Origin: Candidatus Omnitrophota bacterium
GTDB lineage: Bacteria; Omnitrophota; Gorgyraeia; 2-01-FULL-45-10
Length of the DNA: 64,000 bases
Assembly (NCBI GenBank): GCA_041661345.1
Contig: JBAZUO010000004.1
Coordinates: 13,688-77,687 of the forward strand
Reading direction: 5' to 3'
Position 1 is the first letter of the stretch. Each line of letters starts with the position of its first letter. The notes under the pieces were generated by a model. That model ran no database searches and had not been told where the DNA came from. It saw nothing but the letters and a program-made list of their open reading frames with translations. A program made the position numbers and the translations under genes. Below are positions 1 through 17,262 of this stretch, piece by piece.

Positions 1-1550
1 CTAGACTTACCATGCCCTCGAAAATCGAACGTGATAACATCATATTCTTTGCTGAATGCTTCAGCCATCCCTTTAAATAAAGCCGTATCCTTGTTAGTAT
101 AAAAACCATGCGCGATAATAACAACCTTAGAAAACCCTCCTTTAATGTGAGAAAAGGCGATGCGTTTCCCATCTTCGGTTATCATGTAGCGATCAGGTTC
201 ACTCTCTCCCGTAGGGCAAGAAATTGCACCCTCGTGGAAGTCTCCGGTCGTGTCGCAAATCTTTTTGGGTTCTGTTTTTTGAAAATTGCCTTCAAATACC
301 GATTTTGCTATGGCTTTAATAAAATTAGTGTAAATATCCCACTCCGCTTTCATGCGCCACAAGAAAAGATACCGCGAACTGTTTTTCTTGCCCACGGAAA
401 TAGATTTTCTTGACCTGACATTTTCATAAATTTCCAGCATGCGCTTGGCAGAAACATTTATCGGATATTTCTGTACCGTCATTCTTACGAGCTGCTTTAT
501 GGTTTGCAGATCTTCGGTAGTCCGAGATAAAGCCCAAATAAGAGCATCGACGTAACTTTGCTGATCCATCTGGCTAAGCAATCGGCCGTTATGATAATCT
601 TTTATTACATCCCGCGCTCCCGGGGCATCCAATGCTACCACGGGAATACCTGCTGCCATGGCTTCAATGAGAACCATCCCTTGAGTTTCGCTTAATGAAG
701 TAAATGCAAAAACATCCATGGCAAAATAAGCATCAACCAAATGCTGATAATGTAAGACTCCCGTTAAATGCAATCTACTTTCAAGACCGGCCTGTTTAAA
801 GGTATCCTTGATCATTTTTTCCGCTGGGCCAAGTCCCACAATCAGAGCATGAACCTTTGGATCCTTTTTTAACGCTTCAACCATGCAATTTATCAGGAAA
901 TCCATATTCTTCTCCGGCGCCAACCGCCCCGCATGTCCTATAACTTTAGCGTCGAGAGGGATCTGATTCTGCTGGCGAAAAGCAATTCTGTCGCTTTTTG
1001 AAAAACGTTCCAGATCTACCCCCGTTGGAACAACCTCTATGGGAGTTTTGACACCTCTTTTAAGTAAAATATCCCGCACGCTTTCCGAAGGGGCAATCAC
1101 CTGGTCCGTTAAATTAGCATATCCTGCGGCATACTTGACCATAAATCGCTTCATTCCCTCATTTTGAATCGGCAAAAAATGGACATACTGCTCAAACATC
1201 GTGTGGTAAGTAAAAACTAATGGTATGGCGTGCTGCCGACTGAGGCGCAGGGCAAAATCTCCCATGAAAAATGGACTATGACTGTGTACTATATCCGGTG
1301 AAAAATCTTTCATGTACCGCGTTAACAGCTCGGAGGACGGAAAGTTAATGGAGAAGATAGTCCCGTTAACTTTTTGAAAGGCAGGAATGCGGATAACGCC
1401 CGGCTCCTCTATCGGCATCCCTTCAAAGGCCGGAGTAACTATCAAAATCTCATGCCCCAAGCTTTTAAATTCTTCGCTGAAAGAATAAATCGATTGCTCT
1501 ATCCCTCCTACGATCGGGAAATAGGTATTACTCATCATTAAAATTCTCAT
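1..1550 (-). CDS. Family 4 glycosyltransferase (GT4) fused to a C-terminal alpha/beta-hydrolase domain. Truncated at the 3' end by the window edge.
   Basis: My own reverse-complement translation from the ATG at 1548-1550. N-terminus MRILMMSNTYFPIVGGIEQ..., and a GT4 E-x7-E region EAMAAGIPVVALDAPG. After a linker the frame continues into IIAHGFYTNKDTALF...FDFRGHGKS, an alpha/beta-hydrolase nucleophile-elbow start, and runs off at position 1. The ORF track lists no complete ORF in this frame because it has no stop in the window. The middle of the ORF was translated by eye, so exact residues there are approximate. Confidence 0.7.
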   Translation of the reverse strand, partial: MRILMMSNTYFPIVGGIEQSIYSFSEEFKSLGHEILIVTPAFEGMPIEEPGVIRIPAFQKVNGTIFSINFPSSELLTRYMKDFSPDIVHSHSPFFMGDFALRLSRQHAIPLVFTYHTMFEQYVHFLPIQNEGMKRFMVKYAAGYANLTDQVIAPSESVRDILLKRGVKTPIEVVPTGVDLERFSKSDRIAFRQQNQIPLDAKVIGHAGRLAPEKNMDFLINCMVEALKKDPKVHALIVGLGPAEKMIKDTFKQAGLESRLHLTGVLHYQHLVDAYFAMDVFAFTSLSETQGMVLIEAMAAGIPVVALDAPGARDVIKDYHNGRLLSQMDQQSYVDALIWALSRTTEDLQTIKQLVRMTVQKYPINVSAKRMLEIYENVRSRKSISVGKKNSSRYLFLWRMKAEWDIYTNFIKAIAKSVFEGNFQKTEPKKICDTTGDFHEGAISCPTGESEPDRYMITEDGKRIAFSHIKGGFSKVVIIAHGFYTNKDTALFKGMAEAFSKEYDVITFDFRGHGKS

Positions 1551-3004
1551 TATTTGTCCTTTAATCCTATCAGTGCTTTTCTGGCAGCCACACATATCGC
1601 TTCATAACAATCTTGCGCGCCACAAGCCAACCCTTCCTTTTCCAGATCTTTGACAAGAAACGGTTTACCGAATCTCACTTTGATCGGATAACATTTGGGG
1701 TACTGTTCCGTACTGGACCAGGCCTCGTGAGCTCCTTCTATGGCCACAGGTACGAGCTGTGCCCCCGTCTCCTTAGCCAAAATACCGAATCCTTTTTTAA
1801 ATTTCCCGACTTCGCCTGTACTGCTGCGTATTCCTTCCGGAAAGAAGCACAAATTTTTGCCGTGGTCTAACACATAATAACAGCTGCGCAAGCTCTCCAG
1901 AAAATGCGTTGAAAAATCAAAGGGAATGAATCTTTCCATCTTTACGACATTCCTTAATAGACGAGATTTTATGAACGGCCTGAAAAAATACGGTATGAAG
2001 ATGAAGTAAAAGATCTGGAACCCCCGTATACGCGGCAGGCTTGCGGCAATGGCCGGCCCATCAAGAAAACTCGTATGGTTGGGATAAAAAATACAAGCCC
2101 CCTCCGTAGGTACGTTCTCTTGTCCTTCCACCTTAATCCTAAAAAATAATTTCATGATAGAATAAAATATGGCTGTTATAGTAAATCGAAATAGCCAGGC
2201 AAAGAAACCGTTACCCAATTCGATCGCTCCCAGATGTTCTTCCTTCGGCGGTATTTGTAAATTTTTTTTCCAGTAGTTCGGCCCCAGAGATAACTCTTTA
2301 TCCTCCATGGGGATGTCTTTGGCTCCGCCCAATGCATCCGTTATCCCCAAAATAAGATCTTTTACACTAAAGGCTCTCGAGATCGCTTCATCTTTTATAT
2401 CCGCGCTAAAAGCCAACTCAAGGCACGAAGCAAGCTCTATCCTGCCTAATGAATCTATACCAAGGTCCAGCTCTAAAGAATCCTCGAGCGTTATAGGTCT
2501 TCTGATACCGCATAGCTCCTTTAAGGATTCCAAAATTTTTATGCCAATCTCGGATCCTATTAATAGACTGTCCTCATTCGTCAGCTCTCCTCGAACCGGA
2601 GGAGGGCCTTTTATCCCCTCGATGACTCTACGTTCATACATCTTCTTGATCATATATCTTTTTAGCTTACCAAACCGGATATGCGGCAGATCCTCCAGCG
2701 TAATAGTAAAACCTTTAAGCCTTTTATAAGAAGGCAGCGACGGCGAGGCATTGTCAAATTTCTCCTTAAGGACTAAGCATAGATTCACTTCGGCAAATTC
2801 CCTGAATTTATCAAGATCCGGCTGGATGACAGCCCAAAGAACTTTCGATTTTTTTACGCCTCCCATTCCGGAAACTATAAAGACGCACATCTCTTTGATG
2901 GGAGCAACTTTTGAATAGAACTCCTCGATCTCTTCCGGGCAAATTTTCTCCCCTGACTTCAATATGATAAAATCTCTAAATATATCTGTGATGGCTTCTG
3001 TCAT
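1550..3004 (-). CDS. Tri-domain lipid acyltransferase: orphan AMP-binding C-terminal subdomain, then an acyl-carrier (PP-binding) domain, then a PlsC-type lysophospholipid acyltransferase domain.
   Basis: N-terminus GEKICPEEIEEFY...LPHIRFGKLKR resembles the A9/A10 region of adenylate-forming enzymes. The ACP motif LELDLGIDSLGRIEL is present. The PlsC motifs NHTSFLD (H-x4-D) and FPEGIRSSTGE are present. The start ATGA overlaps the stop of the upstream gene, which suggests translational coupling. Confidence 0.7.
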   Translation of the reverse strand: MTEAITDIFRDFIILKSGEKICPEEIEEFYSKVAPIKEMCVFIVSGMGGVKKSKVLWAVIQPDLDKFREFAEVNLCLVLKEKFDNASPSLPSYKRLKGFTITLEDLPHIRFGKLKRYMIKKMYERRVIEGIKGPPPVRGELTNEDSLLIGSEIGIKILESLKELCGIRRPITLEDSLELDLGIDSLGRIELASCLELAFSADIKDEAISRAFSVKDLILGITDALGGAKDIPMEDKELSLGPNYWKKNLQIPPKEEHLGAIELGNGFFAWLFRFTITAIFYSIMKLFFRIKVEGQENVPTEGACIFYPNHTSFLDGPAIAASLPRIRGFQIFYFIFIPYFFRPFIKSRLLRNVVKMERFIPFDFSTHFLESLRSCYYVLDHGKNLCFFPEGIRSSTGEVGKFKKGFGILAKETGAQLVPVAIEGAHEAWSSTEQYPKCYPIKVRFGKPFLVKDLEKEGLACGAQDCYEAICVAARKALIGLKDK

Positions 3005-5418
3005 TTATCAATACCATTTTTCAATTCTATTGCATTCGTTCCGGGCGAAATTCTTACATTCGCAAAACCAGGTAATTGAATATCTATCGGCGGCTCTTTC
3101 GTAAACCAAATTCCTTGCCATTCGACAAGGACATTTTCTTCCTGAGGTTTTATGGAAATTTGAATAATGCCAAATCTTGTCGGCGCGGGCCCAAACGCGA
3201 TCGTTTGTTTTTTACTTAACCAGATTCGCGGTATCCCCGAACATAATATTAATCGGCCGTTTTCTTCACGTACAAAACAATTTCTTATCATCAAAACCCA
3301 TTCCGCCGCGGCCCACACATGCTGCCCGTCCCCCATGCATCCGCCGCCTGTGCGTGGATGCACCGACTCAGGCCATTGTCCCGTTGGTGAAGCCAGTTTA
3401 GCCACCGCTGTCATTAAACCAAAATATCTTGGATCGCCTGCGCGCAAAAGCACCTGGGCTAAATGCAGTGTAAGGTAAGGATTGATCCCAGAATGGGTCA
3501 TATCATGAAAGAATCCGCCATGGATCAAACAATTTTTCATTAAATAATCAACTGTATCTAAAATCCTTGGATCATTCTGTTTAAAAATACGAAGCGGATA
3601 GCCGGCAACCAAAGAGCCAATCGCCCCCGCATCCAAGCGGCGATAAGGAGATGCTGGTATCGCAGGCCTTTTCAAACGAACTTCGACTTTTTTCAAGCTT
3701 TTGTCAATACTCTCCAGTAAAGAATTTGATTCAACTTCAAAATAAAGAGCACGATCATTATCCTTGTAAGCAGTGCATAAAAAAGCTGCTGCTTTTAATC
3801 CCGCTACAGCCCAGAAATCATCCCAATAATAAAAATCATTCGGCCCCAGATGTTCGGCGCTGAATCCCGACGGTAATAAGCCTGCATGAGGAAATCGTAA
3901 ATCGCCGGATAAACGCTTTTTACAGATCCACTTACCGGCTTTACTGATCGATTCTTTCCATTCTTCCGGTGGTACATTTCCCGTCATCTCACAATACTGA
4001 CGCATGATCCACAGGGCCTCACCGTTGGAATCCCACTCCCCTTCTTGAGAGAGGAAATAACCATCAGCTGTCTGACGGGAGCGGAAACAATCTAAGGCTC
4101 GTCGAACGCGCTCGGTTAACCCGGCAGATAACATGGCAGATAATATAAAAGCGGCATCGCGAAACCAAAATCGCCGGTAAATATAAGGACCTGGATAAAC
4201 TTCCTTCGGAGAATGCAAAATCATTGTGTGGATAGCGGCTTCGTAAAGAAATTGAATTTGTTCATCTGGAATTTGCAATATACAGATGCCTTGAAGACTT
4301 TTCTTCCACTCCACCTGAGCAGCCTCTTGAGGGTACCTATAAGATCCTCTTTCAATTTTATTTTTCGTTAAAGGTACCAAAACGGTTATTTCTTGTAATT
4401 CTCCCGTCTCCAATATAAAAACGGCTGCGGAGCTGGCCATACCGACTTTGCATGAAATTTCTTTTTCAAATTCATTCGATGATAAACGGCTATAAACATC
4501 ACCTCGATAATAGTTCGAAAATACGTATTGATCCGGACACTTATCAAAATATATAAAATTTTCCTGATTTACCTTCCAGCCCAACGAATCTTCGAGTAGG
4601 GTAATGCTATTTATAAAGCTCACGCCTTCGGGGTTATAAGGCCTGAGAGAAACGACTAGCCGCGCATTAGTGGAACCAGACCCTGTGATTTTAACCTGGC
4701 AAATAGGTTCTTTGGCTGGACCAATAACTTGCGCTTTCAATTGAAGCTTTAATTGCCCAAGACTTGATTCTGTGATCACGCAAAGATTATCATCGAAAGT
4801 CATCTTTTGCGATACATTTGGCATGCGCGACGGAATTAATGGCTCTCCCTCTTTTGGAATAATCCAGGCGTCAATGGACCACCCATCATAATAGGGCGTA
4901 ACAAGGCCGCGTGGATCTATAATAGGAAATTCGGTGCTGTCAGGAACGCCTAAAGCTGTCCAATTTCTATGGGTGAGATTAATTTGAGTCAGTGAAAAAG
5001 ACCGCGGTATAAACGCCGGATCTTCAGGATCATATTGACATTCTACCCAATAAGGCCAGATCCAATCAAGGTTATGTTGAATGGCTAAGCTATTTATTAA
5101 ACCACGAGCGTGCATGACAGCCCCTGAACGCAACAGCTCCGTCGGAGCTGCCACCTCCGAGGGTTGCGCAAAACTCTGTAATCGAGAAATCAATTTAACA
5201 GGATCTAAAAACCCCTGCCTGCGCGCAGCATCGCTCAATAAAAATTTCCACGGTAACCATTTCCACCATATAAAATAAGCCCGCTCTTTCAACAAGATTC
5301 TAAAAACCCACCACTTAAAGCAGATAAAGGCAAATAAGGCTGTCAACGTTGTAGCGATAATCAACGCTGCAAAAATAGCCCCGGGCCACAAGTTAAGGAT
5401 ACTTTGATTTATTAACAT
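3001..5418 (-). CDS. Membrane-anchored six-hairpin glycosidase-like protein of 805 aa (GH15/GH63/GDE_C-like (alpha/alpha)6 barrel).
   Basis: N-terminal TM helix (AIFAALIIATTLTALFAFICF). The segment YRRFWFRDAAFILSAMLSAGL...EGEWDSNGEALWIMRQY is typical of glucoamylase-like six-hairpin glycosidases. The family assignment is by motif only. Confidence 0.5.
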   Translation of the reverse strand: MLINQSILNLWPGAIFAALIIATTLTALFAFICFKWWVFRILLKERAYFIWWKWLPWKFLLSDAARRQGFLDPVKLISRLQSFAQPSEVAAPTELLRSGAVMHARGLINSLAIQHNLDWIWPYWVECQYDPEDPAFIPRSFSLTQINLTHRNWTALGVPDSTEFPIIDPRGLVTPYYDGWSIDAWIIPKEGEPLIPSRMPNVSQKMTFDDNLCVITESSLGQLKLQLKAQVIGPAKEPICQVKITGSGSTNARLVVSLRPYNPEGVSFINSITLLEDSLGWKVNQENFIYFDKCPDQYVFSNYYRGDVYSRLSSNEFEKEISCKVGMASSAAVFILETGELQEITVLVPLTKNKIERGSYRYPQEAAQVEWKKSLQGICILQIPDEQIQFLYEAAIHTMILHSPKEVYPGPYIYRRFWFRDAAFILSAMLSAGLTERVRRALDCFRSRQTADGYFLSQEGEWDSNGEALWIMRQYCEMTGNVPPEEWKESISKAGKWICKKRLSGDLRFPHAGLLPSGFSAEHLGPNDFYYWDDFWAVAGLKAAAFLCTAYKDNDRALYFEVESNSLLESIDKSLKKVEVRLKRPAIPASPYRRLDAGAIGSLVAGYPLRIFKQNDPRILDTVDYLMKNCLIHGGFFHDMTHSGINPYLTLHLAQVLLRAGDPRYFGLMTAVAKLASPTGQWPESVHPRTGGGCMGDGQHVWAAAEWVLMIRNCFVREENGRLILCSGIPRIWLSKKQTIAFGPAPTRFGIIQISIKPQEENVLVEWQGIWFTKEPPIDIQLPGFANVRISPGTNAIELKNGIDK

Positions 5419-5704
5419 TGATCCCTAAAGCTAATGAGTTGACTAGTACATACCGGCCAAATTCAGCATAAGACGGTTTGTTGTATTGAAATGTCCAGTA
5501 TTTATAAAGTAAATACCCTACAATACCCGCGCATGTAAAAGAAATCCCCTTAGACATGCCAAAGGACAGAAAATGAAATAAAATATAATAAATAGTAAAG
5601 TCTGTTGCATTTACAATGGTCCCGGAAATTAAAAACCGTATTATTTGTTTATTATTCTTCATATCAGTTTTTAAAAGATGCGGGACAGGATCAGTGCCCC
5701 GCAT
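5393..5704 (-). CDS. GtrA-family membrane protein (a polyisoprenyl-phosphate glycoside translocation accessory protein).
   Basis: RFLISGTIVNATDFTIYYILF...YKYWTF is the GtrA signature. The true start may be the internal Met (MKNNKQ) at 5661. Confidence 0.6.
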   Translation of the reverse strand: MRGTDPVPHLLKTDMKNNKQIIRFLISGTIVNATDFTIYYILFHFLSFGMSKGISFTCAGIVGYLLYKYWTFQYNKPSYAEFGRYVLVNSLALGINVNKSKYP

Positions 5705-5723
5705 CTTTACCTTCTTTTACAGT

Positions 5724-5855
5724 TTAGTTACCGATATTGCTGACATGCTTTCCCGCATCCTGTATATCTTTTCCTGCGCCTCTGGCTGCATTGCATCCGG
5801 TAAGTGCGCTAGCTAAAAACACAATTGCTAATACTGCTAAAGCAATTTTTTTCAT
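5724..5855 (-). CDS. Entericidin EcnA/B-family small lipoprotein (43 aa).
   Basis: This CDS is not in the ORF track. Hand translation gives MKKIALAVLAIVFLASALTGCNAARGAGKDIQDAGKHVSNIGN. It has a lipobox LTGC and the entericidin-like CNxxRGxGxD motif. An AGGAG RBS lies upstream. Confidence 0.65.
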   Translation of the reverse strand: MKKIALAVLAIVFLASALTGCNAARGAGKDIQDAGKHVSNIGN

Positions 5856-5869
5856 ATAACTCTCCTTTC

Positions 5870-6250
5870 TTATTTATTTTTAAGTGCACCGTTAATAAAT
5901 TTAACCAGCTCCCTGTCATTAAATGGTTTTTGCAAATACCCCGTTGCCCCTGCTGCCATAGCTCGCTCATGATTTACGCCGCTTTTGTCTGCTGAAATAA
6001 TGATAACCGGACGTTTGGATCCGGATTTAATAATCAACTTTAATGTTTCCCATCCATCCAGCCCCGGCATATGGATGTCTAATATCAAACAACCGGGAGA
6101 GTTATGGGGCACATCACGAAAAAAATCCTTTGCTGAAGTAAAGGTGTCGACTTTAAATCCGTATGTAATCAGCAGAATACCCAACGCGCAGCCTACCGAG
6201 GCATCGTCATCCACAATAAATATTTGATTATGCGACTTTTTTGGTTTCAT
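5870..6250 (-). CDS. Single-domain response regulator (CheY-like receiver).
   Basis: IFIVDDD...LILDIHMPGLDGWET...K. The start is taken at the internal MKPKKSHNQ, because the longer ORF would overlap the upstream small gene. Confidence 0.8.
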   Translation of the reverse strand: MKPKKSHNQIFIVDDDASVGCALGILLITYGFKVDTFTSAKDFFRDVPHNSPGCLILDIHMPGLDGWETLKLIIKSGSKRPVIIISADKSGVNHERAMAAGATGYLQKPFNDRELVKFINGALKNK

Positions 6251-6266
6251 ATACGGTTTATGGGGA

Positions 6267-6416
6267 TTAAAGCACTTTTCGGCCGCTGATGAGGCGCAAA
6301 ATAATAACGATAACGGCAATAACGAGCAGTATGTGAATAAATCCGCCTATTGTGTACGACGAAATCAATCCTAACAACCAAAGCACAATCAAAACAACTG
6401 CAATTGTGTACAGCAT
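6267..6416 (-). CDS. lmo0937-family small membrane protein (49 aa).
   Basis: Not in the ORF track. Hand translation gives MLYTIAVVLIVLWLLGLISSYTIGGFIHILLVIAVIVIILRLISGRKVL. It has an AGGAGG RBS and its own TTGACC-N17-TACAAT promoter upstream. Confidence 0.6.
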   Translation of the reverse strand: MLYTIAVVLIVLWLLGLISSYTIGGFIHILLVIAVIVIILRLISGRKVL

Positions 6417-6515
6417 ATCTTACCTCCTGCTTTATTTATGTTTGCATTGTATAGGAAAATAAAAAAGTGGTCAATTGTACCTGGGTATAACCTTGGATTA
6501 AAGAAGAAACTAGTA

Positions 6516-7136
6516 CTAGGAGGAAGCGATGCCTGCTTTTTGTGCGAAGTGGATAAGTTCAGTCACAGTTTTAGCCTTCATCTTCTGCATAACCCGGCCG
6601 CGATGAACCTTGATCGTTTGTAGGGAAGTCCCCCGCTTGAAGGCAATATTTTTACTCATCATCCCCTTGGCTACAAGTCGAAAAACTTCCAGTTCTCGCG
6701 GAGACAAAGTTCTGATACGACGTTTTATTTTTGCTATTTCGGCTTCTTTATTATTTTGAACTGTGCTTTTTAAGATGGCAAGCGTAATAGCATTAAGCAG
6801 CTTCTTTTTTGTAACGGGTTTAGTAAGAAAATCAACAGCTCCTGCCTTCATAGTTTTTACACTCATTGGGATATCGCCGTGTCCGGTGATAAATATAATA
6901 GGAATGGTAATGGCCCGTCGTGTCATAACATCTTGAAGGGCAAGTCCATTGATATCCGGCAGGCGTATATCCAGGATCAGGCATGATGGCAGCTTGGGGT
7001 GCTTATATTCCAGGAAGGAGCGAGCGTGCGTAAACGTTTTAACTTCAAACCCGTGCGATTTTAACAATAAGGTTAGGGATCTGCATATGGAAACGTTGTC
7101 ATCAACGACATATATAAGCGGCTTGCGCTTATTCAT
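6516..7136 (-). CDS. Two-component response regulator of the FixJ/LuxR (NarL) family, with a receiver domain and a LuxR-type HTH.
   Basis: LIYVVDDN...LILDIRLPDINGL, and a C-terminal LSPRELEVFRLVAKGMMSKNIA HTH motif. Confidence 0.85.
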   Translation of the reverse strand: MNKRKPLIYVVDDNVSICRSLTLLLKSHGFEVKTFTHARSFLEYKHPKLPSCLILDIRLPDINGLALQDVMTRRAITIPIIFITGHGDIPMSVKTMKAGAVDFLTKPVTKKKLLNAITLAILKSTVQNNKEAEIAKIKRRIRTLSPRELEVFRLVAKGMMSKNIAFKRGTSLQTIKVHRGRVMQKMKAKTVTELIHFAQKAGIASS

Positions 7137-8053
7137 CAGGCATCCTTCATGCCAATAGGAATGGTGAAATAAAAGGTAGCGCCGCGATCAGTATTCCTCT
7201 TTACGTCCAGTCGGCCGCCATGTGATTCAACGATGGAGCGGCTAATAGACAACCCCATACCCAAACCATCCGGCTTGCTCGTAAAAAAGTGAGTGAAGAG
7301 CTTGGGCATATTGTGCTTGGGTATCCCGCATCCGGAATCCTTTACCGCTACCATGATCGTATTAGTATTTTTACGTGATGTACATATCAATATTTCATGT
7401 TCACCCCGGCTATTCTCCAGGGCATCAAAACTATTGCTGATAAGATTCAAGAGAACCTGTTGCAGCTGTACCCGGTCGCCGTGAACAGGCGGAAGATTAT
7501 CCTCAAGTCCGATTTTTAAGGCAGTATTTCTTATGGCGGCATCAGTAGCAATAAGCGCAATAGTCTCATTAATAACGGTATTAATGTCCAGCAGTTTCGT
7601 TTCAGGATTACCTTTCTTTAACAGTGAACGCAATCGCTGAATAACCTCAGACGCCCGATGGTCATCATTAATGATATAGGATAGAATTTTCTGTAGTTCA
7701 GGCTCTCTGTCTGCAAGCATACGTTGGGCAGCTTGAGCGTACGAGAGAATAGCCGTAAGAGGTTGACTGATTTCGTGGGCAAGCGAAGAAACAAACTCCG
7801 CAAGTTTTCCTACCCTGGTGACGTGCAGAAGCTCCGCGCGCTGTTTAAGTATCTCCAGGTCCTTCTTCCGTATTAATGTAGCATCTATCTTTATCTGCTT
7901 TTCTGCGCCTTTCTGTTTTTTTATCCCATTCTTTAGTTGCCCGTTTTTAATCTTGAGCTCACCGGCTTGCTGCCGGACTACCCCCTTTAGACGCACGCGC
8001 TCACCGTTCCGGATTTTATTTCTCGATACTGGCTTTTTTGTTTTCTTTTTCAT
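7136..8053 (-). CDS. Soluble sensor histidine kinase (HisKA plus HATPase_c). It has a Lys-rich coiled-coil N-terminus and no TM or obvious sensor domain.
   Basis: H-box LAHEISQPL. G-boxes GCGIPKHNMPKLF and GLGMGLSISRSIVESHGG. The gene overlaps the response regulator by 1 nt. Confidence 0.8.
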   Translation of the reverse strand: MKKKTKKPVSRNKIRNGERVRLKGVVRQQAGELKIKNGQLKNGIKKQKGAEKQIKIDATLIRKKDLEILKQRAELLHVTRVGKLAEFVSSLAHEISQPLTAILSYAQAAQRMLADREPELQKILSYIINDDHRASEVIQRLRSLLKKGNPETKLLDINTVINETIALIATDAAIRNTALKIGLEDNLPPVHGDRVQLQQVLLNLISNSFDALENSRGEHEILICTSRKNTNTIMVAVKDSGCGIPKHNMPKLFTHFFTSKPDGLGMGLSISRSIVESHGGRLDVKRNTDRGATFYFTIPIGMKDA

Positions 8054-9002: not shown

Positions 9003-9490
9003 ATTACCTTTCTAACTAATTTTAGCTCTTCAATATCTTTTAAATCTTTATCACGCCCTGATGCTCTTTTCATTTTTATAAAATCTTTCGGCGATAAAAT
9101 TATAAGGTTTAGGCCTTTTATTTTAACTTTTAGGGCGTTTTTTATAGCGTTCTTAAAATTAACCGGCGAATCAATAACTATATCAACTTCTTCATAACTT
9201 TTTTCACCCTTGTAAAAATTAAACGCCTTCATATTTTTATTTTCAATCCAATCTTTGCGTGTTTTCGCATCTGCTATCATTGCAGGATCTACCGGTTGTT
9301 TGACATGATACCCGGCCTTCCTCAATATCTTAACTATCTTTCCAAGATTCTCATCCGTCATTTCAACCAGGATGTCCATGTCGAGCGTATTTCTCTGTCC
9401 TCCAAGGAGATTAAATGCCATGCCTCCCACGAGGACATATTTTACCTTCTTGCTCTGAAATTCTTTAAGTATCTCTTCGTACAGTATCAC
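8999..9490 (-). CDS. Minimal nucleotidyltransferase-fold (Pol-beta superfamily, MNT-like) protein.
   Basis: VGGMAFNLLGGQRNTLDMDILV fits the G[GS]-x9-13-D-x-[DE] nucleotidyltransferase motif. The gene lies between tRNA-Leu and tRNA-Gln. Confidence 0.45.
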   Translation of the reverse strand: MILYEEILKEFQSKKVKYVLVGGMAFNLLGGQRNTLDMDILVEMTDENLGKIVKILRKAGYHVKQPVDPAMIADAKTRKDWIENKNMKAFNFYKGEKSYEEVDIVIDSPVNFKNAIKNALKVKIKGLNLIILSPKDFIKMKRASGRDKDLKDIEELKLVRKVI

Positions 9491-9525
9491 ATCAAGCCCT
9501 TAATTATGCTTTTGAAAAAAGAACA

Positions 9526-9654
9526 TTAAGAAAAACCCTTTCATAAAAGGTTTTTCTTAAACAAATTTGGGCGCTAGCCCCACTGGCTATTGCTTTGTCG
9601 GTGGGCCGAAGTCAAAAACCAGACAACAGTTTTTGGCGGAGGCCAAATTTGCAT
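9526..9654 (-). repeat. Conserved hairpin (9526-9560, ttaagaaaaaccctttcataaaaggtttttcttaa) plus tRNA-trailer element copy C (9559-9654), abutting the tRNA-Gln CCA.
   Basis: aaacaaatttgggcgc...ggcggaggccaaatttgcattgg. The terminal stem caaatttgg/ccaaatttg covaries relative to copies B and D (cgatttgg/ccaaatcg). Confidence 0.6.
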
Positions 9655-9728
9655 TGGTTGCCCAGCTAGGATTCGAACCTAGACTAAATGGTTCAGAGCC
9701 ATTCGTGCTACCATTACACCACCGGGCA
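9655..9728 (-). tRNA. tRNA-Gln, anticodon CUG.
   Basis: Reverse complement gives TGCCCGGTGGTGTAATGGTAGCACGAATGGCTCTGAACCATTTAGTCTAGGTTCGAATCCTAGCTGGGCAACCA. It has the U1:A72 pair typical of tRNA-Gln and the anticodon loop CTCTGAA. It sits immediately downstream of glnS. Confidence 0.85.
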
Positions 9729-9778
9729 ATGATCACTCTTACGTTACCCGTAAATCTTATACTAAAACCGGACTTTTT

Positions 9779-11464
9779 TCAACGCTTTCTTTGCTCGAGC
9801 TTCACCCACTCATCTTTCAGCGTCACTGTCCTGTTAAAAATACGCTTCCCGTTTTTTAAAGCTATAGGATCGAGATAAAAATAGCCCAGGCGCTCAAATT
9901 GATAGCGGCTTCCGGGCAAGGCTCCTTTTAGCGACGGCTCAAGCTTGCAGGACGTTAGGATTTCGAGAGATTTCGGATTAAGGTTGGAGCGAAAATCCTT
10001 GCCTTCGAGTGCATCGTCAGGATCGCGCTTAGTGAATAGTAGATCATAGAGCCGGACCTCCGCGTCGATAGCATGGCTTGCCGAAACCCAGTGGAGCGTA
10101 GCCTTCACTTTGCGGCCATCAGAAGCATCTCCTCCCCGCGTAGCAGGATCATATATGCATCGGATCTCGGTAATCTCGCCCGTCTTGGGGTCCTTGATGA
10201 CTTCCGTACATTTCACGAAATACGCATATCTCAGCCTTACTTCTTTCCCTGGAGATAACCGGAAAAATTTTGGCGGGGGAACTTCTCTAAAATCATCCCG
10301 TTCGATATATATCTCCCGGCCAAACGACACTTTGCGGGTTCCGGCGGCCGGGTCTTCTGGATTATTGATGGCGTCGAGCTCTTCCGTTTTACCTTCCGGA
10401 TAATTCGTTATGACAAGTTTAATGGGCCTTAGGACCGCCATTACACGCGGTGCGGTCTTATTCAATTCTTCCCGTATCGCATTTTCGAGCACGGCGATCT
10501 CTATTATGGAATCCATCTTCGAAACGCCGATCCCATCGCAGAATTGGCGGATCGCGTTCGGCGTGTAGCCACGCCGCCTGAAACCGGATATAGTCGGCAT
10601 GCGCGGGTCATCCCATCCGTCTACCGATTTCTCCGTAACAAGCTGAAGCAATTTACGTTTGCTTAAAACCGTATGACTTAAATTAAGCCTCGCAAATTCG
10701 ATCTGCTGCGGATGGTAGGCTTTTAATGTATCAAGTATCCAATCATAGAGCGGACGGTTATTCTCAAATTCAAGCGTACAGATGGAGTGCGTTATCCCTT
10801 CGATAGAATCGGAAATACAGTGCGCAAAATCATACATAGGATAGATGCACCATTTGTCGCCGGTGCGATGATGGTGCTCGCGCTTTATGCGATATAGGAC
10901 AGGGTCGCGCATGATAATATGCGGATCCGCCATATCGATCTTGGCGCGCAAAGTTTTGCTGCCGTCGGGAAACTCGCCCTTCCTCATGCGCGCAAAGAGG
11001 TCGATATTCTCATCGACCGAACGGCCACGATATGGACTATCCTTGCCGGGTTGGGTAAGCGTTCCACGGTATTCCCGCATCTCATCGATATTCAGGTCGC
11101 AGACATACGCTTTGCCTAATTTTATAAGCTGGACGGCACATTCATAAAGCCTTTCGAAATAGTCCGACGCGTAGAAGAGACGATCTCCCCAGTCGAATCC
11201 GAGCCAGCGGACATCTTCGACGATCGAGTCGACATATTCGCTCTCTTCCTTTGCGGGATTCGTATCGTCCATTCGCAGGTTGCACAGGCCTTTGTAATCG
11301 CGGGCGATGCCGAAACTGATACAGATAGCTTTGGCGTGGCCGATATGCAGATAACCGTTCGGCTCGGGCGGAAAACGCGTGTGAACCTTCCCCTTGAACC
11401 TGCCTGTCTTAAGGTGTTCGTCGATTATCTCTCTTATGAAATTTTGATCTTGAGTTTTTTCCAT
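9779..11464 (-). CDS. glnS: Glutaminyl-tRNA synthetase.
   Basis: [42 protein letters not shown] is near-identical to the GlnRS HIGH region. Confidence 0.9.
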
Positions 11465-11478
11465 CCTATTTCGCCCTT

Positions 11479-12759
11479 CTAGACAACTGCTTTTCTCATT
11501 CTCTCTAGAGCCTTCGATTTGCCCAAAACCTCCATCATCTCGAATAGGCCCGCCCCGGTGGTCTTACCGCTTATAGCGACACGGGTAGGATGAATAATCG
11601 CGCCGGGTTTCAATTTCATTTCTTCGGCCATCGATCGACATTCTCCTTCGATGGCACTGTGGGAAAAGTCGTTCAACCGTTCTAATCGGGCGGCGAACTC
11701 ACGCAAGGCATTTTTTGATTCCGGCGAGACAAGATGCTTGCCCGCAGCCTTCTCATCGATCGAATAGTCGTCACTGAAGAAATAATCGGTCATTTGCACA
11801 AATTCGGAAAGCGTCTTAATGCGCACTTTGTAAAGTTTTATAACCTCGAGAAGCTTGTCGTCCGTCGCCGGGCAAGCCTTACCGGTATCAAGCATCTGTT
11901 TCTTGATCAGTTCCAGCAGTTCCTTATCGGGTTTTGCGGCAATATACTCGCCGTTCATCCATCTAAGTTTCTGGATATCAAACTTTGCCTGCACGCCTTT
12001 CATATTATTAATGTCGAATGCCTTGACAGCCTCTTCTATGGGTATTATTTCACGGTCTGATCCCGGCGACCATCCGAGGAGAAGGAGGTAATTAACGAGC
12101 GCTTCCGGCAAAAATCCTTCGCGCTTATACTCTTCAACGGAAACACCGCCGTGCCGTTTTGAAAGCTTTGCCCCGTCCATTCCCATGATAAGCGGCATGT
12201 GGCCAAACTGCGGGATCGCCAACCCCATCGCCTCATAAAACAGGATCTGCTTCGGTGTGTTTGAGACATGGTCGTCGCCGCGTATGATATGGGTTATCTT
12301 AAGGAACGCGTCATCGATGACACAGCAGAAATTATATACGGGGGAACCGTCCGACTTTATCATCACCTGGTCCTTGATCTCGTCGGTGTTAAACGTGATC
12401 TTGCCGTGTATCATATCGTCGATCTCGATCGTCCGGCCTTTCGGGACCCTGAAGATATACGCCTCGCCCTCGCGGTATCCCAAACCCTGCTTCACGATCT
12501 CCTCGGCGGCCTTGCGGTAGATCTCGAACCGCGCCGACTGGTGGACCGGCTCCTCGTCCCAATCTATACCGAGCCATTTGAGATCCATCACTATCTCATC
12601 CAGGAAACGTTTTTCGGAGCGGGTGCGATCCGTATCTTCGATGCGTAAAAGTAGTTTGCCTTTATAGCGGCGGGCATATAACCAATTGAATAACGCTGTC
12701 CTCGCGCTGCCTATATGGAGATAACCGGTGGGACTTGGGGCGAACCTTACTCTTACCAT
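11479..12759 (-). CDS. gltX: Glutamyl-tRNA synthetase.
   Basis: [23 protein letters not shown] (HIGH motif) and KLSKRHG (KMSKS motif). Confidence 0.9.
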
Positions 12760-13340: not shown

Positions 13341-14126
<786 letters not shown>

Positions 14127-14131
14127 GGCCT

Positions 14132-15184
14132 TTAAACCAATGCTTCTATCTTTTCCAGTATTTCCGATTCCGTGGGAATGCCGCCGCCCATGCGCCCATA
14201 GAAATCTACTTTCGCGCGCCCGTTCACCGCAAGCCTCACGTCCTCGACCATCTGGCCGGCGCTCATCTCTACAACTAGAAACTTTTTCGCTATATTGCAA
14301 GCATCTTCTATCAATTTTTCCGGGAAGGGCCATAGCGTTATCGGCCGTATCATACCAACCTTTAATCCTTTATCTCTTGCCATATCCATCGCCGCCCTGG
14401 CGATCCTCGCGGCAGAGCCGTAAGCAACGAGCACTATTTCGCTGTCCTTTGTGTGAAAAGTTTCGGCGCGCACTTCCGTGTCTTTAATCAGTTTAAATTT
14501 TTCCTGCAATCTCTTATTATGTGCTTCCAGAGCGCCGTCGCCCAAATAAAGCGATTTGATTATATTCGGCTTCCTACCCCTACACCCCGTAAGGGCCCAC
14601 GGCTTTTCTATTAGCTTGGGGTTATAGTCTACAGGCTGCATCTGGACCGGCTCCATCATCTGCCCGAGAAGCCCATCGCCGAGTATCAGCGCCGGATTTC
14701 TGTATTTATCGGCAAGATCAAATGCCAAAAATGTATACTCCAATAGTTCCTGCGCACTCGATGGCGCCAGGACCATTATCTTGTAATCTCCGTGCCCGCC
14801 GCCCTTGACCGATTGAAAATAATCACCTTGCGAGGGGGCTATGTTGCCTAAGCCGGGGCCGCCTCTCTGCATATTCACTATAACGCAAGGCAGTTCGCAG
14901 CCGGTCAAATATGATATCCCTTCCTGCTTCAGGCTTACTCCCGGGCTCGATGACGATGTCATCGCCCGCATGCCTGCCGCCGCAGCGCCAAATACCATAT
15001 TTATCGCGGCCAGTTCCGATTCCGCCTGTATAAATACGCCGCCGGTCTCATACATGCGCTTGGCCATATAAGCGGTCAATTCATTCTGTGGAGTTATCGG
15101 ATAGCCGGCATAAAACCTGCAGCCGGCAAGAACCGCCCCTTCGCCGCATGCATCATTTCCGCACATCAATATTTTTTTAGCCAT
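14132..15184 (-). CDS. porA: 2-oxoacid:ferredoxin oxidoreductase alpha subunit.
   Basis: YAGYPITPQNEL...FIQAESELAAINMVFGAAAAGMRAMTSSSSPG. Confidence 0.85.
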   Translation of the reverse strand: MAKKILMCGNDACGEGAVLAGCRFYAGYPITPQNELTAYMAKRMYETGGVFIQAESELAAINMVFGAAAAGMRAMTSSSSPGVSLKQEGISYLTGCELPCVIVNMQRGGPGLGNIAPSQGDYFQSVKGGGHGDYKIMVLAPSSAQELLEYTFLAFDLADKYRNPALILGDGLLGQMMEPVQMQPVDYNPKLIEKPWALTGCRGRKPNIIKSLYLGDGALEAHNKRLQEKFKLIKDTEVRAETFHTKDSEIVLVAYGSAARIARAAMDMARDKGLKVGMIRPITLWPFPEKLIEDACNIAKKFLVVEMSAGQMVEDVRLAVNGRAKVDFYGRMGGGIPTESEILEKIEALV

Positions 15185-15394: not shown

Positions 15395-17262
15395 TATTTT
15401 ATGACCTCATTAACAATTACATCGCAAATAGCGTCGGGTGTCAAGTTATACTTTAAAAATAGTTCGCTCCTTTTACCATGTTCTATAAATTTGTCGGGAA
15501 GGCCTATTCTACGCACTTTTACATCTTTGAAACCGTATCGCTCTATAAATTCCAGCACCGCGGAGCCAAAACCGCCCTCCAAAATACCATCTTCCAGCGT
15601 TACTATACTTTTTACGTCCCTACAGAGGCCGGAAAGCATATCCCCGTCGAGAGGCCTTACGAAACGGGCATTGATAACCGTTGATCTTATCCCTTTTTTC
15701 GATAGAATATCAGCCGCTTTTAACGCTATCTCGGCCATACCGCCGATCGAGACGATCGCAAGATCCGCGCCTTTCATCAATATTTCGGCCCTTCCCAGCT
15801 TTATCGGGTCGGATGACGCGGTTTTTAACGATGAAGAGCCTTTCGGATAACGTATCGCAACCGGCCCATTCAGTGTCAACGCGAATTTAAGCATATCTTT
15901 AAGCTCATCCGGCGACGCCGGCGCCATGAATGTAAGATTCGGTATGCCGCGCAGATATGCGATGTCAAAAACGCCATGGTGTGTCGGGCCATCCTCTCCT
16001 ACCAAGCCCGCCCTGTCCAGGCAAATGACAACGGGAAGATCCTGCAGGCATATATCGTGAATTATCTGATCATATCCCCGCTGTAAAAATGTGGAATATA
16101 TAACCGCAACGGGTTTATAGCCGCTCCTTGCAAGACCAGCGGCAAAACCCATCGCATGGCCTTCCGCGATGCCCACATCAAAAAACCGGTCCGGAAACTT
16201 TGCCGCAAAATCGTTAAGGCCTGTCCCATCCAGCATCGCGGCAGTTATAGCAACTATTCTTTTGTCTTCACCCGCAAGATCCGTAAGTGTCCGGCCGAAC
16301 GCATCCGTAAATGTCGGGGCGTTTTTCGACTCAACCTTTTTGCCTGTCTCCGGATCGAACGGGCCTGTTCCATGAAAGGAGCCTGGATCGTTCTCCGCCG
16401 GACGAAAGCCGCGGCCTTTCTTCGTTATAACGTGTATCAATATCGGTTCGTTCAGGTCCTTCAGATTTCTGAATGTAGCTATAAGCCTCGGTATGTTATG
16501 GCCGTCTATCGGGCCAAAGTATCTGAATCCAAGTTCCTCGAAAAGCATACCCGGCACCAGAAGGTTCTTCAGCCCCTCTTCGAGTTTCCTCGCAGCCCTA
16601 TAGGCACGAAAGCCAAATCTGGGGATGCGTTTCAGAAGGCGTTCAACGTCATTTCGTATCTTATTATACGACGGGTTGGCCATTATCCTGTTTAGATATC
16701 CGCTCAAGGCGCCGACGCTTTTGGATATCGAGCGCTCGTTGTCATTAAGGACGACTATGACATCTTTATTAAGATGCCCCGCGTGATTAAGAGCCTCGAA
16801 TGCCATGCCGCCTGCCAGTGACGCATCGCCTATGACCGCGATAATTTTATTCTTACCCCCGGCCAGATCACGCGCAACTGCGGCGCCAAGCGCCGTCGAT
16901 ATGGATGTGGAACTATGTCCGCACGTAAATATGTCATATTCAGGGCTTTCGTCTTTATTTGGAAAACCACTTAATCCGCCCAGCTGTCTTAAAGTAGGAA
17001 ATTTTTTTAATCTGCCTGTAAGCATCTTGTGCGCGTATGTCTGATGGCCGACATCCCAGAAAATACGGTCTTTCGGGGCGTCAAAAACATAGTGCAGCGC
17101 TATCGTAAGCTCTACCGCGCCGAGCGATGAGGCTATGTGGCCGCCTGTCTTGGAAGTGGTAGCCAGGATTTCAGCCCTGATCTCGCCGGCAAGAGGGCCA
17201 AGCTCGGTTAAGCTTAGCTTTTTTAAATCCGCGGGACTATTTATATTTTCTATCAAGCTCAT
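15394..17262 (-). CDS. dxs: 1-deoxy-D-xylulose-5-phosphate synthase.
   Basis: GGHIASSLGAVELTIALHYVFDAPKDRIFWDVGHQTYAHKMLTGR; 622 aa. Confidence 0.95.
   Translation of the reverse strand: MSLIENINSPADLKKLSLTELGPLAGEIRAEILATTSKTGGHIASSLGAVELTIALHYVFDAPKDRIFWDVGHQTYAHKMLTGRLKKFPTLRQLGGLSGFPNKDESPEYDIFTCGHSSTSISTALGAAVARDLAGGKNKIIAVIGDASLAGGMAFEALNHAGHLNKDVIVVLNDNERSISKSVGALSGYLNRIMANPSYNKIRNDVERLLKRIPRFGFRAYRAARKLEEGLKNLLVPGMLFEELGFRYFGPIDGHNIPRLIATFRNLKDLNEPILIHVITKKGRGFRPAENDPGSFHGTGPFDPETGKKVESKNAPTFTDAFGRTLTDLAGEDKRIVAITAAMLDGTGLNDFAAKFPDRFFDVGIAEGHAMGFAAGLARSGYKPVAVIYSTFLQRGYDQIIHDICLQDLPVVICLDRAGLVGEDGPTHHGVFDIAYLRGIPNLTFMAPASPDELKDMLKFALTLNGPVAIRYPKGSSSLKTASSDPIKLGRAEILMKGADLAIVSIGGMAEIALKAADILSKKGIRSTVINARFVRPLDGDMLSGLCRDVKSIVTLEDGILEGGFGSAVLEFIERYGFKDVKVRRIGLPDKFIEHGKRSELFLKYNLTPDAICDVIVNEVIK

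Follow-up and report, generated by a model that had tools for sequence, protein, structure and literature searches.

Among known bacterial systems, the gene cluster described here appears to most resemble, in its logic, the PlcP-Agt system of marine and soil bacteria, in which a phospholipase C supplies diacylglycerol to a family 4 glycosyltransferase (GT4) that makes glycolipids (PMC4796936, PMC8231724). The cluster lies at the start of a 64,000-nucleotide stretch of a Candidatus Omnitrophota genome (the window), where all of its open reading frames (ORFs) are on the minus strand at the positions at which they were first read. It encodes a GtrA membrane domain joined to a glucoamylase-like protein that we call X, a 484-aa protein that combines part of an adenylation domain (A_C) with an acyl carrier protein (ACP) domain and a PlsC-type acyltransferase, and a GT4 enzyme fused to an alpha/beta hydrolase. 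It is a genuine gene cluster that is conserved in Candidatus Omnitrophota, and its conserved core, the pair of X and GT4, is spread over many phyla. With moderate confidence, we read the cluster as a module for glycolipid synthesis and turnover at the cytoplasmic face of the inner membrane, to which acyl remodelling would have been added in Omnitrophota. The parts come from known superfamilies and the proposed logic has its precedent in PlcP-Agt; it is set apart by how broad and well conserved the unnamed enzyme family X is, by the joining of X to GtrA and by the apparent orphan C-subdomain of an adenylation enzyme. Literature searches found no publication on Omnitrophota and GtrA, on this domain combination, or on Omnitrophota and glycolipid.

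In PlcP-Agt an enzyme that degrades phospholipids and a GT4 that transfers hexose to diacylglycerol at the cytoplasmic membrane are paired in operon-like fashion, and the cluster GT4 is likewise fused or adjacent to lipid-hydrolase-type domains. The two systems differ in that the GT4 enzymes of the cluster have ~400-440 aa and are nearest to the Mgs and PimA types, whereas the Agt/GTcp clade has 334 aa, and in that the cluster has an obligatory X and a flippase-like partner, both of which PlcP-Agt lacks. With Mgs (NF049988) and PimA (2gej, 4n9w) the cluster GT4 shares the GT-B fold, the GT4 family, the EX7E motif and an alignment over its full length; unlike them, it is fused to an alpha/beta hydrolase in the window and to PilZ or a phosphodiesterase-endonuclease/exonuclease/phosphatase (phosphodiesterase-EEP) protein in relatives. 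X resembles glycoside hydrolase (GH) family 15 (GH15; 1lf6, 1ug9 and 9ju0; clan GH-L) in having an N-terminal beta-sandwich, an (alpha/alpha)6 barrel and a Y..W.RD segment, but it adds to these a conserved helical module at its N-terminus and a beta domain at its C-terminus, and is predicted to be membrane-tethered and cytoplasmic. Aas, the 2-acyl-glycerophosphoethanolamine acyltransferase/acyl-ACP synthetase, also joins a PlsC-type acyltransferase to adenylate-forming sequence and re-acylates lyso-lipids with acyl chains bound to ACP, whereas the 484-aa protein has the reversed domain order, a built-in ACP and, of the adenylation part, only the apparent C-subdomain. The Gtr system of O-antigen glucosylation (GtrA, GtrB, GtrC/V) has the GtrA-family four-helix membrane domain in common with the cluster; in contrast to that system, neither a GtrB-type family 2 glycosyltransferase (GT2) nor a GtrC-type transferase occurs in four related loci (L001, L002, L083 and L084; related loci and proteins are given here as L and P numbers) or in window positions 1-8053, and the GtrA of the window is not stand-alone, being fused to a glycosidase-like domain on the predicted cytoplasmic side.

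The GtrA-X gene and its product

The original prediction described four tightly packed genes, the first encoding GtrA and the second a membrane-anchored glycosidase-like protein. The ORFs, their coordinates and the tight junctions (ATGA at 3001-3004 and TAATG at 1550) stand, but, judged from sequence, the genes number three, the GtrA ORF and the 805-aa ORF being one frameshifted gene (Table 1), because the homologues are single proteins and the DNA alignment reveals a loss of 2 nt. The glycosidase-like protein accordingly includes GtrA as its N-terminal domain, and GtrA has no gene of its own. Proteins homologous to the 805-aa ORF (73-85% identical) are single chains of ~877-921 aa with a whole N-terminal GtrA domain, more than 100 relatives encode GtrA-X as one protein of ~890 aa, and the named ones all come from metagenome-assembled genomes (MAGs) of Candidatus Omnitrophota. 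The loss is a clean one at ~5414-5415 in the alignment with L083, L084 and L001, and the frameshift is also seen by protein comparison with P0002, P0005 and P0006. ORF 1 matches the Pfam family GtrA_DPMS_TM (E 1.7e-11) over profile positions 1-79 of 117 only, and with the frameshift bridged (P0002) the GtrA profile (PF04138) is matched over positions 1-117 (E 4.6e-12). The GtrA domain is modelled by AlphaFold as four helices (residues 3-120), and what had been read as the transmembrane anchor of the 805-aa ORF (…FICFKWWVF) is GtrA helix 4, the one that ORF 1 lacks. The start codon of the gene is most likely ATG 5662 (MKNNKQIIRF) and not ATG 5704, because the former matches the N-termini of the homologues (MKNKKQIIRF) and the limits found with tblastn, where a stand-alone GtrA used as query matches window positions 5662-5435. 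ATG 5704 sits within the stem of a strong hairpin.

The frameshift is either a sequence error or the sign that only an X anchored by one helix is made in this genome. A third explanation, that the cluster is decaying, with the deletion inactivating GtrA-X and the cluster as sequenced not functional, would fit the break between GtrA helices 3 and 4 and the intact gene in the closest relatives. However, there is no other lesion: the 805-aa ORF and both remaining genes are intact, with 70-87% identity to their orthologues in Omnitrophota. Furthermore, the deletion lies in a T-run of a MAG, where an assembly or polishing error is plausible, and an in-frame ATG at 5418 could still yield the one-helix-anchored X. 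GtrA and X are also naturally two genes in some Omnitrophota; in L009 and L013-L015 a complete GtrA and X are encoded by adjacent genes, the break in the window lying instead inside the domain. We therefore regard decay as quite improbable.

In the GtrA domain, Lys and Arg abound at the N-terminus, in loop 2 and in the segment that follows helix 4, but not in loops 1 and 3. Under the positive-inside rule this would place X in the cytoplasm, on the same side as the nucleotide-sugar-dependent GT4. Such a placement speaks against a role for X as a trimming enzyme of the outer face that works after GtrA flipping.

The description of X as a six-hairpin glycosidase-like protein gains no support from Pfam or NCBIfam and holds at the level of the fold. 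The X part matches no Pfam family even at E up to 10, no NCBIfam family is matched by the L060 orthologue, and the Glyco_hydro_15 model of Pfam gives no match for the window X at E up to 10. Weak matches to the GH15 model occur in only 6 of 47 diverse relatives (best E 0.0074), and scattered members weakly match several six-hairpin Pfam families. A sequence search of the PDB with X returned nothing usable. Profiles of the X family match glucoamylase and an archaeal debranching enzyme at borderline E-values, and the profile alignment places Y-x3-W-x-R-D of X opposite YHLVWSRD in 1lf6 (glucoamylase) and YHAVWARD in 1ug9 (glucodextranase).

The AlphaFold model of X, made from an alignment of 81 diverse family members, has a predicted local distance difference test score (pLDDT) of 92.9 and a predicted template modelling score (pTM) of 0.92. 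When only close homologues were aligned the N-terminal module was poor (pLDDT 73), which the diverse representatives corrected. The predicted layout begins with GtrA helix 4 (aa 12-42), followed by a Trp-rich amphipathic segment, the helical module (aa 46-128), the beta-sandwich (aa 181-349), the (alpha/alpha)6 barrel (aa 365-715) and the C-terminal beta domain (aa 716-801). The top Foldseek matches are GH15 enzymes, namely glucodextranase 1ug9 (E 5.8e-18) and glucoamylase 1lf6 (E 2.8e-17, template modelling (TM) score 0.62), with dextran dextrinase 9ju0 also near the top and GH94 and GH65 phosphorylases following, at identities of 10-12%. The modelled fold fits GH15 and clan GH-L, and X falls outside the GH15 family as Pfam defines it. 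Three acidic residues, D421, D533 and E684, are invariant in alignments of 82 and 47 diverse members, and R420, E461, D463, E522, D528, R593, D596, D697 and H700 are nearly so. The confident fold, the GH15 top matches, the Y..W.RD segment and the invariant acidic residues together make X look like an active enzyme with a GH15-like fold. The YYWD(D/N)FW segment of X is reminiscent of DLWEE of GH15, which holds the general acid, and WPE(S/A)(V/I)HP…GWAAAE of SEQ…TWSYA, which holds the general base; both likenesses serve as leads only.

An exhaustive search (E 0.001 or better) places at least 2,370 clusters at 50% identity in the X family. Most members have ~750-800 aa and no GtrA. These stand-alone proteins begin with a Trp/Arg-rich segment, M(P)WLKWLPWRFF.RR, that looks like an interfacial amphipathic helix and not a signal peptide. 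The distant members are almost all without a name, a single one being labelled GH15 family. X has no characterised member and no curated family, and neither Pfam nor NCBIfam has a model for it. Further domain fusions were also sought, and ten long members have no extra Pfam domain; the long X ORFs of high-GC loci are artefacts of ORF calling.

Partner enzymes in Omnitrophota and other phyla

The order GtrA-X, A_C-ACP-PlsC, GT4 recurs in almost all of the GtrA-type Omnitrophota loci sampled (L001, L002, L003, L006-L015, L083 and L084), so the genes of the neighbourhood do co-occur in related genomes. Pfam confirms GtrA, PP-binding, PlsC, GT4 and the start of the hydrolase as parts of these proteins, and calls neither X nor AMP-binding_C. 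The view that the fusions are non-standard is correct with respect to curated families, but both are common and stable within Omnitrophota.

The 484-aa protein had been read as an AMP-binding_C/ACP/PlsC protein. Its ACP domain is recognised by Pfam PP-binding (PF00550, 27 bits vs a cut-off of 20.8) and has the serine of the GIDSL motif, and ACP entries are among the PDB matches of the protein. Its PlsC domain matches Pfam Acyltransferase (PF01553, 63.9 bits vs a cut-off of 23), with NHTSFLD (HX4D) and FPEGIRS present; the closest PDB entry for this part is 5kym (Thermotoga maritima PlsC), and the best NCBIfam matches of the same part of an orthologue are Aas-type models, far below their cut-offs. 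Pfam AMP-binding_C gives no match to the protein at E up to 10, and what points to this domain instead is a paralogue in L001, a 907-aa AMP-binding/AMP-binding_C/PP-binding/Acyltransferase protein whose residues 438-907 are 40% identical to the 484-aa protein, with residues 5-125 aligning to the C-subdomain of the paralogue. Additionally, aa 6-121 of an orthologue weakly match acyl-CoA ligase C-termini (NCBIfam, E 1e-4), and the A10 lysine is kept (FGKLKR). The protein starts exactly at the hinge that precedes the adenylation C-subdomain. The N-terminal adenylation core (PF00501) is absent from it, and no AMP-binding core occurs elsewhere in the 64-kb window. The possibility that this truncation is an artefact was rejected because at least 120 Omnitrophota clusters of ~485 aa (480-499 aa) share at least 70% identity, all the named ones being from Omnitrophota. 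By its sequence, then, the protein appears to be an orphan adenylation C-subdomain followed by an ACP and a PlsC domain. Since it has no adenylate-forming core, another protein would have to load its ACP in trans. In L001 the gene for the full-length AMP-binding/ACP/PlsC paralogue comes immediately behind that for the GT4 fusion; in L083, a locus 87% identical to that of the window, it lies 4.8 kb downstream. The protein offers a clean natural test of whether split adenylation domains can work in trans.

The last gene of the cluster was predicted to encode a GT4 enzyme with a C-terminal alpha/beta hydrolase, and both Pfam and the full-length product P0405 bear this out; the gene is cut by the window start. 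The GT4 part matches Glyco_transf_4 (E 4.2e-37) and Glycos_transf_1 (E 5.9e-34) and has an intact EX7E motif (SETQGMVLIE). P0405 (694 aa) is 100% identical over the 516 residues present in the window and shares one NCBI contig with P0001 and P0283. The first 41 residues of the hydrolase lie in the window (26.4 bits vs a cut-off of 25.8) and include an HG oxyanion motif. The 178 residues outside it contain the catalytic triad, and P0405 matches PF00561, PF12146 and PF12697 with the Ser-Asp-His triad motifs GFSFG, HGEKDW and GGHAE. The best NCBIfam match of the GT4 is alpha-monoglucosyl-diacylglycerol (MGlcDAG) synthase (NF049988), over the full length, and the next-best models include GlcNAc-PG synthase and MshA. 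Its closest solved relative in the PDB is PimA (full length, E ~8e-19), then MshA and BshA, and some orthologues are named 1,2-diacylglycerol 3-alpha-glucosyltransferase by JGI. The orthologues comprise ~60 clusters with the alpha/beta hydrolase fusion (670-740 aa) and ~55 with GT4 only. In one Omnitrophota lineage, P0503 (574 aa; on the same contig as P0013 and P0304) has a PilZ domain with the motifs RRKLIR (RxxxR) and DISKEG (DxSxxG) in place of the hydrolase, which hints at control by cyclic di-GMP (c-di-GMP). In L083 a response regulator with a GGDEF domain is encoded just downstream of the cluster.

A total of 165 X loci came from scanning metagenomes and a single genome for each species, 141 of which have at least 1.5 kb of downstream sequence and could be tested for a GT4 partner. 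A GT4 homologue lies within 2 kb downstream of X on the same strand in 115 of the 141, and directly adjacent to X in 91. DedA/VTT adjoins X in 58 loci, a type-I phosphodiesterase-EEP protein (~800 aa) is encoded by a separate gene in 58, GtrA is fused or adjacent to X in 25, and A_C-ACP-PlsC is present in 27. Among the hosts are Marinobacter, Methylobacter, Thiohalophilus, Bowmanella, Desulfobulbaceae, Planctomycetes, Nitrospinae and Fibrobacteres, whose X proteins are 51-56% identical to that of the window, the same range holding between Omnitrophota and Gammaproteobacteria. In L022 (11387-15121), L093, L121, L135 and L142 GT4 and the phosphodiesterase-EEP protein form one fusion protein of ~1,224-1,250 aa. 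A full AMP-binding/ACP/PlsC gene lies directly upstream of X in L034 (an alphaproteobacterial MAG), and a gene of DUF374, which we take to be a family like the lysophospholipid acyltransferases, lies upstream of X in L088. In L164 a diacylglycerol kinase gene (9304-10350; DAGK_cat and DAGK_acc) overlaps the stop codon of X, and an 819-aa GT4 protein precedes X. What holds X at the membrane is, in Omnitrophota, a GtrA domain that is fused to it or adjacent and, in most other phyla, its Trp/Arg-rich amphipathic N-terminus beside DedA/VTT, and the X-GT4 pair is combined, lineage by lineage, with a flippase-like membrane protein (GtrA or DedA) and an enzyme that cuts or rebuilds acyl-glycerolipids. 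DUF368 is a third flippase-like family found next to X.

These neighbourhoods bear on the idea that X and GT4 act on a soluble alpha-glucoside or alpha-glucan (a storage glucan, a trehalose-like compound or an osmolyte), with GT4 as the synthase, X as a glucoamylase- or trehalase-like hydrolase, and the lipid neighbours coincidental. The structural closeness of X to glucoamylase, glucodextranase and dextran dextrinase, its best matches, would suit such a role, as would the weak matches of GT4 to glycogen-synthase models, a TreT-like trehalose synthase in the L016 cluster and the many halophilic or marine hosts. However, X is covalently joined in more than 100 proteins to a membrane domain of four helices and elsewhere begins with the Trp/Arg-rich amphipathic segment, its recurrent neighbours at more than 100 loci are membrane proteins and lipid enzymes, and GT4 is fused to lipid-hydrolase-type domains. 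No recurring sugar-phosphate phosphatase, sugar kinase or sugar transporter was found in the clusters examined. A soluble substrate is thus most unlikely in our estimate.

A possible glycolipid cycle

In the glycolipid reading that we favour, a lipid hydrolase would first provide the acceptor, either diacylglycerol or a lyso-lipid. In the window this enzyme would be the alpha/beta hydrolase fused to GT4, and elsewhere the phosphodiesterase-EEP protein (sometimes itself fused to GT4) or a patatin. GT4, a retaining glycosyltransferase, would then move a hexose from a nucleotide sugar onto that lipid, and A_C-ACP-PlsC would re-acylate the lyso intermediate with an acyl chain from its own ACP. Loading of this ACP would most plausibly fall to the full-length AMP-binding/ACP/PlsC paralogue, whose gene lies a few kb away in relatives. 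The Omnitrophota alpha/beta hydrolase and A_C-ACP-PlsC would thus form a deacylation/re-acylation pair. X may cleave or transfer an alpha-linked sugar head group and so set the amount or the length of the glycolipid. Polysaccharide synthase operons carry a glycosidase of their own, which provides a model for such a role. The GtrA domain would anchor X and possibly move the lipid product across the membrane. The glycolipid or membrane-lipid role proposed originally is in this respect partly backed by a GT4 that is nearest to MGlcDAG synthase and PimA and by the lipid-type partners in other lineages.

Several observations weigh against this reading. The substrate assignments and the chemistry are all drawn from homology and neighbourhood. 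X is only ~11-12% identical to GH15 structures, with TM-scores of 0.5-0.6, and the GH65 and GH94 phosphorylases match it nearly as well, so that hydrolase, phosphorylase and transglycosylase are indistinguishable for X. On the MGlcDAG synthase model NF049988, whose equivalog cut-off is 400 bits, the GT4 of L001 scores 139.6 bits and those of L060 and L016 score 115.6-155.5 bits, which leaves room for a different acceptor, and the GT4-PilZ fusion recalls polysaccharide synthases controlled by c-di-GMP. The GtrA-X gene is frameshifted in this assembly, and the full-length AMP-binding/ACP/PlsC paralogue is absent from the 64-kb window and from within 10 kb in L002. No PlcP-type metallophosphoesterase was found in any cluster examined, and Pho-box-like sites upstream of 26 proteobacterial clusters are no more frequent than background, which leaves the analogy with phosphate-starvation remodelling without regulatory support. 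The GtrA, DedA and DUF368 families are also tied to polyprenyl-phosphate carriers, away from glycerolipid, and at one locus (P0264, JGI 3300072015) the gene immediately upstream of a distant member of the X family belongs to DUF368 (VCA0040-like).

This last point leads to an explanation in which the module handles a sugar or glycan linked to polyprenyl phosphate and not a glycerolipid; GT4 would extend it, X would trim or recycle the sugar at the cytoplasmic face, and GtrA, DedA or DUF368 would translocate the carrier. All three families include translocases of polyprenyl phosphate or its sugar conjugates, and it is to these families that X is joined at the loci counted above, 25 with GtrA and 58 with DedA/VTT, as well as at the DUF368 locus. 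The X-GT4 pair of L085 also adjoins a peptidoglycan transglycosylase, and one VTT partner weakly matches the UptA model. That match reaches only 21.7 bits vs a cut-off of 250, however, and the DUF368 adjacency is seen at one locus only. The other recurrent partners act on acyl-glycerolipids (PlsC types, patatin, lysophospholipase-type hydrolase, diacylglycerol kinase and AMP-binding/ACP/PlsC), GT4 is closest to diacylglycerol- and phosphatidylinositol-dependent enzymes, and the clusters of L001, L002, L083 and L084 lack both a GT2 polyprenyl-phosphate sugar synthase and a GT-C transferase. A carrier-lipid substrate is in our view rather unlikely.

A more specific proposal joins three parts. 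X would be a new glycoside-hydrolase-like family with the clan GH-L fold that acts on lipid-bound sugars in the cytoplasmic leaflet, perhaps by phosphorolysis or transglycosylation and not by simple hydrolysis; X, GT4 and a dedicated GtrA or DedA would form a widespread and hitherto unrecognised cycle that makes, sizes and flips a glycolipid or a sugar linked to a carrier lipid; and Omnitrophota would link the cycle to the editing of acyl chains through a split adenylation/ACP/PlsC system, the orphan C-subdomain docking onto the adenylation core of the paralogue. We put it forward tentatively, as a conceivable but rather unlikely proposal.

The combination of X with a lipid-type GT4 and flippase-like proteins points to an unstudied bacterial route to membrane glycolipids, and the module offers a handle on the cargo of some DedA and GtrA proteins. 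Omnitrophota are uncultured and their membranes little characterised, and the cluster is among the most conserved non-housekeeping loci of the phylum, which makes it a concrete target for work on their membrane lipids.

Features of the window around the cluster

Table 1. Positions of the cluster genes, their parts and the adjoining features in the window.
Feature	Position	Strand	Description
ORF 1	5704..5393	-	103 aa
ORF 2 (X part)	5418..3001	-	805 aa
ORF 3 (A_C-ACP-PlsC)	3004..1550	-	484 aa
ORF 4 (GT4-alpha/beta hydrolase)	1550..<1	-	516 codons, open at window start
5' part of GtrA-X gene	5393..5662	-	GtrA helices 1-3; premature stop 5395-5393 from frameshift
Frameshift site	5413..5416	-	2 nt lost, GTTTTA -> GTTA, between GtrA helices 3 and 4
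Rest of GtrA-X gene	3001..5418	-	805-aa ORF, X
(alpha/alpha)6 catalytic barrel of X (predicted)	3274..4326	-	conserved acidic residues, Y..W.RD segment
A_C-ACP-PlsC	1550..3004	-	A_C aa 1-125; ACP aa 156-217; PlsC aa 289-422
GT4-hydrolase	1..1550	-	first 516 of 694 codons; GT4 aa 14-344, linker, hydrolase start aa 476-516
RNA hairpin and U-run	5674..5708	-	just downstream of small lipoprotein gene, encloses ATG 5704
43-aa lipoprotein-like ORF (MKKIALAVLAIVFLASALTGC...)	5724..5855	-	directly upstream of cluster, read from sequence
Receiver-only regulator	5870-6319	-	ORF and Pfam
Response regulator with GerE domain	6516-7136	-	ORF
Histidine kinase	7136-8053	-	ORF

The hairpin that encloses ATG 5704 has a 14-bp stem and a folding energy of -22.2 kcal/mol (z -5.66), none of 200 shuffled sequences folding as well. 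It was not picked up by a simple terminator scan, and probably acts as a terminator at the 5' boundary of the cluster. L083 and L084 have a 43-aa gene, with no Pfam entry, at the position of the lipoprotein-like ORF of the window.

The two-component genes upstream of the cluster are found in the same order in L001, L002, L083 and L084, and NarL-type regulators flank X-GT4 in other lineages too (L134 and L128). These two-component genes may regulate the cluster.

Genes for patatin, GH1 or DUF3108 often adjoin the Omnitrophota cluster. Patatin is encoded upstream in 8 loci, and a stand-alone GH1 gene adjoins the cluster in L001, L005, L009 and L015. In L083 a PlsC-GH1 fusion of 640 aa (16675-17070) follows right after the full-length AMP-binding/ACP/PlsC gene and runs off the locus. 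Elsewhere in the window, no full-length AMP-binding/ACP/PlsC, patatin, GH1, DUF3108 or VTT gene was found.

Farther along the minus strand of the window, two genes for class-I tRNA synthetases of the Glu/Gln type (561 aa and 426 aa) lie side by side at 9779-12759, followed by the housekeeping genes for 1-deoxy-D-xylulose 5-phosphate (DXP) synthase, polyprenyl synthetase and XseA; none of these is kept beside the cluster in relatives. At 13341-15184 on the same strand, two ORFs of a 2-oxoacid:ferredoxin oxidoreductase, 13341..14333 (TPP_enzyme_C) and 14132..15184 (POR_N and PFOR_II), overlap by ~200 nt, which suggests a mis-set start codon or another assembly frameshift.

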